A stretch of DNA of 6,209 nucleotides, taken from a virus. Taxonomy: Duplodnaviria > Heunggongvirae > Uroviricota > Caudoviricetes. The stretch lies in IMG/VR virus record IMGVR_UViG_2711768075_000007; one strand, written 5' to 3'. Position numbers and translations under genes: made by a program. The notes under the pieces are model-generated. The model was not told the DNA's origin, did not search any database, and worked only from the letters and a program-made list of their open reading frames with translations. Below, piece by piece: positions 1,145 to 2,346 of the stretch (positions within the stretch are counted from its first letter, which is position 1; every line of letters begins with the position of its first letter).

Positions 1145-2014
1145 TTATGACCACTTTTTGTTTGGGTTTCGTTGGTGAGCGTGGTTTACAGGATTATTTG
1201 ATATACCCCATAACTCTGACTCGCTTATCTCTACACGAGAGAAAGACCTGCTTTCTTTCAGTTCTTTTATAAACCTAGAACCTAAGATGACATCTATTGT
1301 ACCAGAAAGTTCTTGTAAAAGATCTTTGTTTTTTCTGAGGAAGAAAATATCTTCTTTATATTTAATTTTTACATAGAATTTATTCTGTATTTTTAATATA
1401 TCAAAGCATGGCAGATATCTATATCCCTCATATTTTCGCCACTGCTTAACAATTATAACATCTTTTTCATTTACTGCATTAATCAGCCCAAGACCAAGTA
1501 CAGGTATGAATATTCTATTGTCTGCCGAAAGCGTACAATTATCACCACCAGGCAAATATGTATAAATCATGTCGGAATTTTTATACGCATCAACGAATGC
1601 ACGTAAGAAGCGTACATATTTTTGCCATCCGTTTATACCGAATTTACCATATAAGTATTCTTTATTTGTTAGAAGAAAACTATTTGTATCAGGATCCTTA
1701 TCTACAGACCTGTCGATAAGATCTCCAACTACGTTTACAAAGTCAAAGACAGAGTTTAATAAGAACAATTGTCTTTCAGTAGGGCGAATTTCAATTATGT
1801 AGCCAGGATGAAGACGATATTGCATCTGCTTACGAAGTATACCGAACGCTTGGGTCCGAGCATCTGAAAGCAACTTCTTGTCGCCATCGCCGTGAGCATT
1901 GTTTCTAATAAAACTGATATAATTTGCTAATTTTTCAGCCTCTTTTTTGTGTTTTTTTCGCTCTGATGCTGAGTCTATTGGTTTTGGTATGGACTTGTAA
2001 TCAATCTTCTTCAT
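1145..2014 (-). CDS. Hypothetical 289-aa protein, AT-rich accessory gene in the ral/sieB position immediately downstream of N; function unknown
   Basis: Long minus-strand ORF. Two candidate starts: ATG 2026..2024, overlapping the N stop as ATGA, and ATG 2014..2012, preceded by GAGGT about 5 nt upstream (preferred; product begins MKKIDYKSIPKPID...). Stop TAA at 1147..1145. No hydrophobic helices or signal peptide by eye. Codon usage and base composition are visibly more AT-rich than the flanking lambda-like genes. I recognise no similarity to lambda Ral or SieB or to any other protein. Confidence 0.75.
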   Translation of the reverse strand: MKKIDYKSIPKPIDSASERKKHKKEAEKLANYISFIRNNAHGDGDKKLLSDARTQAFGILRKQMQYRLHPGYIIEIRPTERQLFLLNSVFDFVNVVGDLIDRSVDKDPDTNSFLLTNKEYLYGKFGINGWQKYVRFLRAFVDAYKNSDMIYTYLPGGDNCTLSADNRIFIPVLGLGLINAVNEKDVIIVKQWRKYEGYRYLPCFDILKIQNKFYVKIKYKEDIFFLRKNKDLLQELSGTIDVILGSRFIKELKESRSFSRVEISESELWGISNNPVNHAHQRNPNKKWS

Positions 2015-2022
2015 TACGTACC

Positions 2023-2346
2023 TCATGCCAATGGAATGGATTCCCCTTTAACCTTTTGTCTTCCTTGACAAGTTATACCGAACTCACCTGGCTTGCTATA
2101 CCAAACTCGATGATTCTTGCGCTCAATACGTTGCAGGTTGCTTTCAATCTGTTCGTGGTATTCAGCCAGCACCGTAAGGTCTATCGGATTCAGTGCGCTT
2201 TCTACTCGTGATTTCGGTTTGCGATTCAGCGAGAGAATAGGGCGGTTAACTGGTTTAGCGCTTACCCCAACCAACAGGGGATTTGCTGCTTTCCATTGAG
2301 CCTGTTTCTCTGCGCGACGTTCGCGGCGGCGTGTTTGTGCATCCAT
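2023..2346 (-). CDS. N: Antitermination protein N (lambda type)
   Basis: Minus-strand ATG 2346..2344 with AGGAGA Shine-Dalgarno. 107-aa product MDAQTRRRERRAEKQAQWKAANPLLVGVSAKPVNRPILSLNRKPKSRVESALNPIDLTVLAEYH... carries the arginine-rich boxB-binding motif and matches lambda N. The ORF-track entry 2023..2478 is an in-frame upstream extension. Confidence 0.92.
   Translation of the reverse strand: MDAQTRRRERRAEKQAQWKAANPLLVGVSAKPVNRPILSLNRKPKSRVESALNPIDLTVLAEYHEQIESNLQRIERKNHRVWYSKPGEFGITCQGRQKVKGESIPLA

Follow-up and report, generated by a model that had tools for sequence, protein, structure and literature searches.

The gp48 protein of phage 434 joins the transcription-arrest tail of Nun to a body with a probable TnpB/Cas12-like fold

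The stretch of DNA analysed here, 6,209 nucleotides of phage 434 from the viral record IMGVR_UViG_2711768075_000007 (the window, in what follows), carries directly after the antiterminator gene N a gene of 289 codons, gp48, whose 882-nt interval is 100% identical to the phage 434 record OL657226.1. The results of this work suggest, and we hold with moderate confidence, that gp48 belongs to the Nun family of transcription-arrest factors as a long form made of two modules, its WED-REC module standing in place of the arginine-rich targeting motif. Part of this was already known, as the GenBank product name of the gene (CPT_434_48) is "Nun C-terminal peptide-containing protein". The announcement of the phage 434 genome does not discuss gp48, and our literature search found no paper linking it to TnpB/Cas12, to a wider family or to BREX, nor any prior description of the GGLPSLGK motif that ends its distant relatives. 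A first-pass annotation of the window had described the gene as recognisably similar to no protein family, which no longer holds: its C-terminus is the arrest peptide of Nun, and its body probably has the WED-REC fold of TnpB/Cas12. The confident match to a well-characterised family is confined to a peptide of 14-27 residues, and this heightens the interest of the gene rather than disposing of it. The gene and the parts of its product are the following (AF2, AlphaFold2; pLDDT, predicted local distance difference test).

1145-2014, minus strand: coding sequence of gp48 (CPT_434_48, UMO75312.1), 289 residues plus a stop codon at 1145-1147, from the list of open reading frames (ORFs).
1805-2014, minus strand: N-terminal extension, residues 1-70, with two long helices (16-38 and 43-65) packed on the core; AF2 pLDDT 84-96 over residues 11-70.
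1355-1804, minus strand: WED-REC-like core, residues ~71-220, predicted as a strand (71-77), helices (80-145) and further strands (152-219).
1229-1354, minus strand: helical linker, residues 221-262, with three AF2 helices within 221-257, pLDDT 50-74.
1148-1228, minus strand: disordered C-terminal tail, residues 263-289, delimited by the phmmer match to 6ALG, phrog_5632, pLDDT below 50 and codon-level conservation.

Residues 276-289 of gp48 (window 1148-1189; VNHAHQRNPNKKWS) are identical to residues 96-109 of the Nun protein of HK022 and HK75. A phmmer search against the PDB extends the alignment to gp48 263-289 and Nun 83-109 (6ALG chain N, Nun in an Escherichia coli elongation complex), and the profile phrog_5632, "Nun-like transcription termination factor", covers no more than the final 20 residues of gp48, the protein as a whole matching phrog_12139 (E 1.6e-205). 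Nun residues 87-109 are the only part of Nun ordered in the complex and contain all known arrest determinants (Kang et al. 2017, PMC5386594), and the 14 identical residues span most of the Nun segment that PDB 6ALG shows wedged into the cleft of RNA polymerase. There, R102 pairs with the terminal carboxylate, and K106, K107 and W108 are lodged in a pocket that has the hybrid on one side and the downstream duplex on the other (PMC5386594). The contact residues N97, H98, H100, R102, K106, K107 and W108 and the carboxylate of S109 are all present in gp48, whose tail is, like that of Nun, disordered (predicted by AF2 from residue 260 to 289).

The tail is kept where the rest of the protein has drifted. 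In homologs at 68%, 48%, 47%, 42% and 36% identity the C-terminus always reads VNHAH[QRA]R[ND][PH][NRK]KKW(S), with tail codons that differ synonymously at most positions in the diverged homologs, and the one substitution tolerated at tail position N103 agrees with the N103A control, which was neutral in Nun (PMC5386594). This bears directly on the possibility that gp48 is a non-functional relic, either a TnpB fragment in decay or an in-frame fusion that arose by accident through recombination at the 3′ end of nun. In favour of such an accident, DNA similarity to HK75 starts in frame 15 codons before the gp48 stop and runs for ~180 nt through the terminator, and some copies of the gene are frameshifted or interrupted by the insertion sequence IS1. 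The tail is nevertheless present, and diverged only synonymously, in the homologs at 36-48% identity, whose DNA is not nun-like, and the in-frame mosaic junction is no accident. In addition, conservation within the family extends down to 17% identity, neither RuvC remnants nor IS200/605 ends were found at gp48, and the ratio of nonsynonymous to synonymous substitution rates (omega) between the 434 allele and a 97.7% allele is 0.23, indicating purifying selection. The relic explanation is thus largely refuted, and we give it hardly any credence.

The distribution of the gene points the same way. The identical gp48 protein heads a cluster of 1042 member sequences, and a match is found in 117 of the 5426 complete E. 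coli genomes, near full length in 83 of them. Among the 33 IMG/VR copies, 25 are intact, four carry a homopolymer frameshift and three are cut by IS1; decay, with which the first-pass annotation had reckoned, affects some copies, but most are intact. gp48 is a maintained gene and no chance ORF. The frameshifts all fall in one tract.

1952-1958, minus strand: A7 homopolymer at gp48 codons 19-21, whose A6 and A8 variants are the only frameshifted copies observed.

The variation between A6 and A8 could be sequencing error or a slippage-based on/off switch. The IS1 insertion recurs at gp48 codon 108 in some E. coli prophages (L060 61-470, L059 and L061; H19).

The tail is not confined to proteins of the length of gp48. 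A back-translated tail pattern scanned across IMG/VR shows it to end not only the long forms but also ~46 short proteins (79-123 residues), whose arginine-rich N-termini are of many different kinds. The Nun tail is therefore a portable arrest module joined to interchangeable targeting modules, and the diversity of arginine-rich motifs (ARMs) attached to it suggests that Nun-like excluders form a whole repertoire, differing in the nut sites for which they are specific. The short proteins lie at IMG/VR loci L063-L141 (e.g., L066, L067, L093, L110, L077, L090 and L099). Some of their N-termini (NSKNRRYKERGELIAKRK, NSRNRRREARKAERAEK) resemble the ARM found in N of phage 21 or of P22. A further protein, of 88 residues (P0025), joins a lambda-N-type ARM (MDAQARRREKRKEKQEEWK) to the C-terminal half and tail of Nun, in effect the address label of N on the warhead of Nun. 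Another protein, of 96 residues (P0029), is a rearranged variant: its first 23 residues, recognisable as the lambda Bet N-terminus, are followed by gp48 residues 217-289, including the intact tail.

The body of gp48 is of another kind. A word-indexed search gathered four clusters only, and an exhaustive profile search 24 relatives; with distant relatives in an alignment of 30 sequences, AF2 returned a model with pLDDT 81.6 and a predicted template modelling score of 0.71, against pLDDT 42 from an alignment of four. Foldseek searches with this model, against the PDB and against BFVD, ranked the TnpB/Cas12 superfamily first, and the topology of the model corresponds to a WED-REC-WED lobe. The core carries the motifs P78-x3-Q82-x3-L86, FLLxNK, C160-S-x-S163, IPxLGLGL and R-Y200-x3-F204, of which the first occupies a place equivalent to P13-x3-Q17-x3-I21 of TnpB, and IPxLGLGL one equivalent to LPKLGWV. 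The linker contains the start of a family-wide motif, S-[FY]-[SA]-R-V-[DE]-[FI] (SFSRVEI in gp48, from about residue 256 into the tail segment), which is common to members with the other type of tail, described below, whereas the N-terminal extension is specific to the Nun-tail clade and missing from most distant relatives. Taken together, the predicted structure and the placement of the motifs make a TnpB/Cas12-like WED-REC fold probable for the body, as remote homology and not as family membership. In the Nun-tail protein this lobe is all that corresponds to TnpB, Cas12 or Fanzor (IS200/IS605 OrfB): only ~70 residues follow the WED strands, which leaves no room for a RuvC or zinc-finger domain, no RuvC (D-E-D triad), zinc-finger or TNB domain was detected, and neither an omega-RNA nor transposon ends are detectable. 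The nuclease-dead relatives TldR, Cas12k and dCas12f retain an inactivated RuvC fold, whereas gp48 is without it entirely. A candidate ARM at the N-terminus (SERKKHKKEAEK, resembling RRRERRAEK of lambda N) was considered and rejected, since it is lysine-rich, is not conserved in P0003 and lies within a confidently folded helix.

The position of the gene next to N is a further line of evidence.

2023-2346, minus strand: N antiterminator with a lambda-type ARM, the upstream translational partner of gp48 (Pfam N36, E 2.8e-26).
2020-2026, minus strand: N/gp48 junction, from direct reading of the sequence and the GenBank ribosome-binding site feature.

N of the window is 93% identical to lambda N. 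At the junction (...TTG GCA TGA GGTACGTA ATG AAG AAG) its stop TGA (2023-2025) overlaps the first ATG of the following ORF (2024-2026) as ATGA, and a GAGGT ribosome-binding site (2020-2024) precedes the second ATG, at 2014, by 5 nt, which bears out the earlier suggestion of a start overlapping or directly following the N stop. The minus-strand ORF (1145-2026) gives 293 residues from the first ATG and 289 from the second, and the shorter form is taken as the real product because the homologs begin with MKK, MRK or MRE. Judging from this arrangement, gp48 is translationally coupled to N and co-transcribed with it from pL. The tight spacing recurs in other phages: in 434, L005 and L010 a long form with the Nun tail comes directly after a lambda-type N, at 8 nt in L005 and 1 nt in L010. 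In the phage of L003/L062, which has no N gene, a 42%-identical homolog directly follows pL and putL (this putL being ~95% identical to that of HK75) and so occupies the nun slot. Long forms always adjoin N or putL. In L010 (7733-7999), the N that precedes the 48%-identical long form has only 88 residues and diverges from lambda N after about residue 55; the C-terminal region of lambda N that it is missing contacts RNA polymerase.

In these respects gp48 resembles the Nun of HK022 and HK75 (PHROG 5632): both are encoded in the pL operon beside pL and put or N, and the DNA of the gp48 tail and the downstream terminator block is ~94% identical to HK75. They differ in size (289 residues against 109-112), in the possession by gp48 of a folded WED-REC-like domain and not of a boxB-binding ARM, and in that gp48 of 434 is encoded after N and not in place of it. 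The slot itself, between ea10 and N, is shared with Ral, orf28 and SieB of lambda, with which gp48 has no sequence or profile similarity (Pfam, PHROG, NCBIfam), sieB being moreover on the opposite strand. Of the earlier proposal of a single-gene cargo system, one part is plausible, namely competition or exclusion between phages. Nothing supports the other, a Ral-like role in anti-restriction: there is no similarity to Ral or SieB and neither gp48 nor its distant relatives have a Pfam, NCBIfam or PADLOC match (PADLOC 2.0, run on gp48 and ten relatives).

If such interpretation is correct, the WED-REC module would act as a tether, binding a specific nucleic-acid feature of the target transcription complex (a structure in the nascent RNA, or DNA) and raising the local concentration of the tail; the tail would then arrest RNA polymerase as Nun does in 6ALG, and Mfd would clear away the arrested complex. 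Such an action could start in the first minutes of infection or induction, and its role is likely to lie in competing against mobile elements or other phages, or in selectively arresting non-phage transcription. What is known of Nun fits targeted and general shut-off alike: nut RNA serves Nun only as a tether and can be dispensed with in vitro, over-expression of Nun is toxic (PMC4496710), and RNA polymerase modified by put reads through Nun arrest (PMC8632103). By analogy, this last property suggests a way for a put-type carrier to spare its own transcription.

One alternative is an untargeted version, in which gp48, produced abundantly from pL as lytic growth begins, arrests host RNA polymerase generally, the WED-REC body merely stabilising or positioning the protein and the N- or put-modified complexes of the phage being spared. 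The toxicity of excess Nun, its arrest of polymerase without nut at high concentration (PMC5386594, PMC4496710) and the passage of put-modified polymerase through that arrest (PMC8632103) would all suit it, as would the immediate-early coupling to N and the constant vicinity of long forms to N or putL. We consider it fairly unlikely, since a conserved, folded domain of 220 residues under purifying selection exceeds the needs of a carrier, since the resistance of N-modified complexes to the Nun tail is an assumption, and since lambda-type phages manage without such a gene. The same vicinity to N could be read the other way, as protection: 434, with its lambda-type N and nut, is a potential victim of prophages that carry Nun, the three N-linked long forms (434, L005 and L010) all accompany an N with a lambda-type ARM, and a protein with a tail identical to that of Nun might compete with it for its site on RNA polymerase. 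Occupancy of that site is itself what arrests, however, and the HK022-type phage of L003, which bears putL and would need no such protection, has its long form in the nun slot, so that this possibility appears very unlikely.

Several points weigh against the two-module reading that we prefer, in which the WED-REC module aims a Nun-type arrest. Nun H93 and R94 contact the upstream DNA duplex, and R94A strongly weakens binding (PMC5386594); in gp48 they are replaced by N273 and N274, although these positions vary among the short Nun-like proteins too. gp48 lacks an arginine-rich motif. The relationship to TnpB comes from predicted structure and is weakly supported at the sequence level: hhalign against TnpB N-termini aligns only 26 columns, covering the first motif, without significance (E 0.027, probability 1.8%), and neither gp48 nor its distant relatives have a Pfam OrfB_IS605 or OrfB_Zn_ribbon match. 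A family-profile hmmsearch against PDB sequences returned a chance peptide only. No gene-specific non-coding RNA lies beside gp48, where the upstream intergenic space is nil and Rfam returned nothing. 434 itself needs host RNA polymerase and would have to tolerate gp48. Nun acts from the prophage, yet no separate promoter for lysogenic expression of gp48 was found in a scan, which gave no more promoter-like sites than expected by chance. Finally, that gp48 would bind and arrest RNA polymerase is deduced by computation.

A different light on the body comes from its distant relatives (213-326 residues, 17-26% identical to gp48), which have in common with it the core and, in the linker, the motif S-[FY]-[SA]-R-V-[DE]-[FI]...L-x-G, and differ from it in their tail: they end in GGLPSLGK[GRH]R (e.g., GGLPSLGKRR) or in GGAIExGKKR. 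This second tail is invariant among members 25-84% identical to one another. Their hosts are Dechloromonas, Burkholderia, Paraburkholderia and Neisseria, where their genes are cellular or travel on mobile elements; none was found in the viral collection searched, in contrast to the phage-borne gp48. One lineage has a fixed place in a PADLOC-confirmed BREX operon, between brxC and pglX, with intergenic gaps of 22-35 nt. Others adjoin NYN, RelA-SpoT and DISARM-like genes, or Pycsar and ApeA-HEPN genes; further ones are carried on TrfA-bearing elements, and one stands among housekeeping genes in Neisseria.

The BREX operon in question (L011 3128-16867; also L006, L013 and L017) has an unusual order: brxA, brxB, brxC, the family member, pglX, and then two unknown genes (376 and 423 residues), an HSP70-like gene and a second MmeI-type methyltransferase. 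Upstream of it lie a WYL regulator and an ADP-ribosylglycohydrolase. The motif GGLPSLGK[GRH]R is encoded in 90 stretches of GTDB representatives, and because only seven of these belong to the WED-REC family, the second tail occurs on other proteins too. One protein bearing it, of 103 residues and ending in DWGRLQGRPTPGGLPSLGKRR, is found in Bradyrhizobium hipponense (L029 7857-8168, plus strand), directly downstream of a 721-residue ATPase resembling OLD, AriA and GajA. With this short form, the Nun-type and the second tail each have a short and a long version.

These relatives are the chief support for a further alternative, that the function resides in the WED-REC body itself, which might, for instance, regulate by binding nucleic acid or act as a decoy for defence factors or guide RNAs, with the tail serving for docking or regulation through some partner other than the polymerase cleft. 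A core and linker motif kept with a wholly different and invariant tail, GGLPSLGKRR, in BREX, Pycsar-adjacent and DISARM-like islands, implies a core that works with other tails. On the other hand, the Nun-type tail is conserved exactly at the positions that touch RNA polymerase or nucleic acids in 6ALG, and the ~46 ARM proteins carry the same tail, whose function has been tested in the prototype, Nun. We therefore regard this alternative as unlikely, and retain the reading of gp48 as a long-form arrest factor.

Nun is the textbook plug of the RNA polymerase cleft and has been regarded as a curiosity of a single specificity. In gp48, from one of the most studied phages, this plug is found naturally joined to a much larger module that resembles the recognition lobe of TnpB/Cas12, which gives a direct route to asking how an arrest peptide is re-aimed. 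gp48 would also extend the list of domesticated TnpB derivatives acting on transcription with an exaptation that has no RuvC, and it ties a phage competition gene to uncharacterised accessory genes that bear a second invariant tail in BREX and other defence islands. A bolder proposal, which we put forward tentatively and consider rather doubtful, is that the WED-REC module recognises nucleic acid in the manner of TnpB/Cas12 (a bound RNA, or a specific structure in RNA or DNA), so that gp48 would be a nucleic-acid-directed arrest factor, and that the family of cores with swappable C-terminal effector peptides would be an unrecognised class of peptide-plug effectors of immunity and competition derived from a transposon nuclease. 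Were it true, this class would comprise the Nun-type tail in phages, the GGLPSLGKRR tail in BREX and other defence islands, and short forms for both.

The composition and limits of the inserted DNA agree with its having come from elsewhere. The G+C content (GC) of gp48 is 34.6%, as compared to 48.8% in N, 38.2% in ea10 and 44.8% across the window, and the long-form homologs are all AT-rich (33-40% GC). The 434-specific block, ~1117-2032 of the window by BLAST against lambda, is an exact replacement of lambda ral, orf28 and sieB. In these matters the first-pass annotation was right: the 289-residue AT-rich gene is real, it replaces the whole ral/sieB interval, and it is horizontally acquired cargo in the ea10-N hotspot. 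Two features lie beyond the gene or across its 3′ end.

983-1004, minus strand: intrinsic terminator, from a scan and the GenBank terminator feature.
975-1190, minus strand: mosaic block ~94% identical to the 3′ end of HK75 nun and the region downstream of it, from alignment and BLAST.

The terminator is the first and sole terminator-like site on the minus strand between pL and ea10 in a scan for intrinsic-type sites, Rho-dependent ones being outside its reach. N and gp48 would thus form one terminator-free unit, which is consistent with the expression from pL together with N that had been proposed for the gene. A simple scan found no intrinsic terminator just 3′ of N in lambda either, and was not used to judge tL1.

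The portion of the mosaic block up to 1116 is also common to lambda. The 3′ untranslated region (975-1200, minus strand) is very strongly structured (z -5.35), with a 14-bp perfect hairpin at ~1063-1094 and a small one just after the gp48 stop (1132-1143), both before the terminator. It is 94-98% identical among 434, HK75 and (up to 1116) lambda, despite their differing upstream genes. As a possible omega-RNA-like partner of gp48 it was rejected, since lambda has the block without the gene.

Elsewhere in the window, the Rfam element Lambda_thermo (the cIII thermoregulator) scores 88.5 bits at 470-528 on the minus strand, where a lambda-like cIII leader would be expected to have it. Downstream of cI lies hex, the gene of the "repressor protection protein" (phrog_2651; 2698-3174, minus strand), whose ORF can be read as 158 residues from an upstream ATG overlapping cI; GenBank gives a shorter form, with the remark that an earlier paper had inferred the wrong start.

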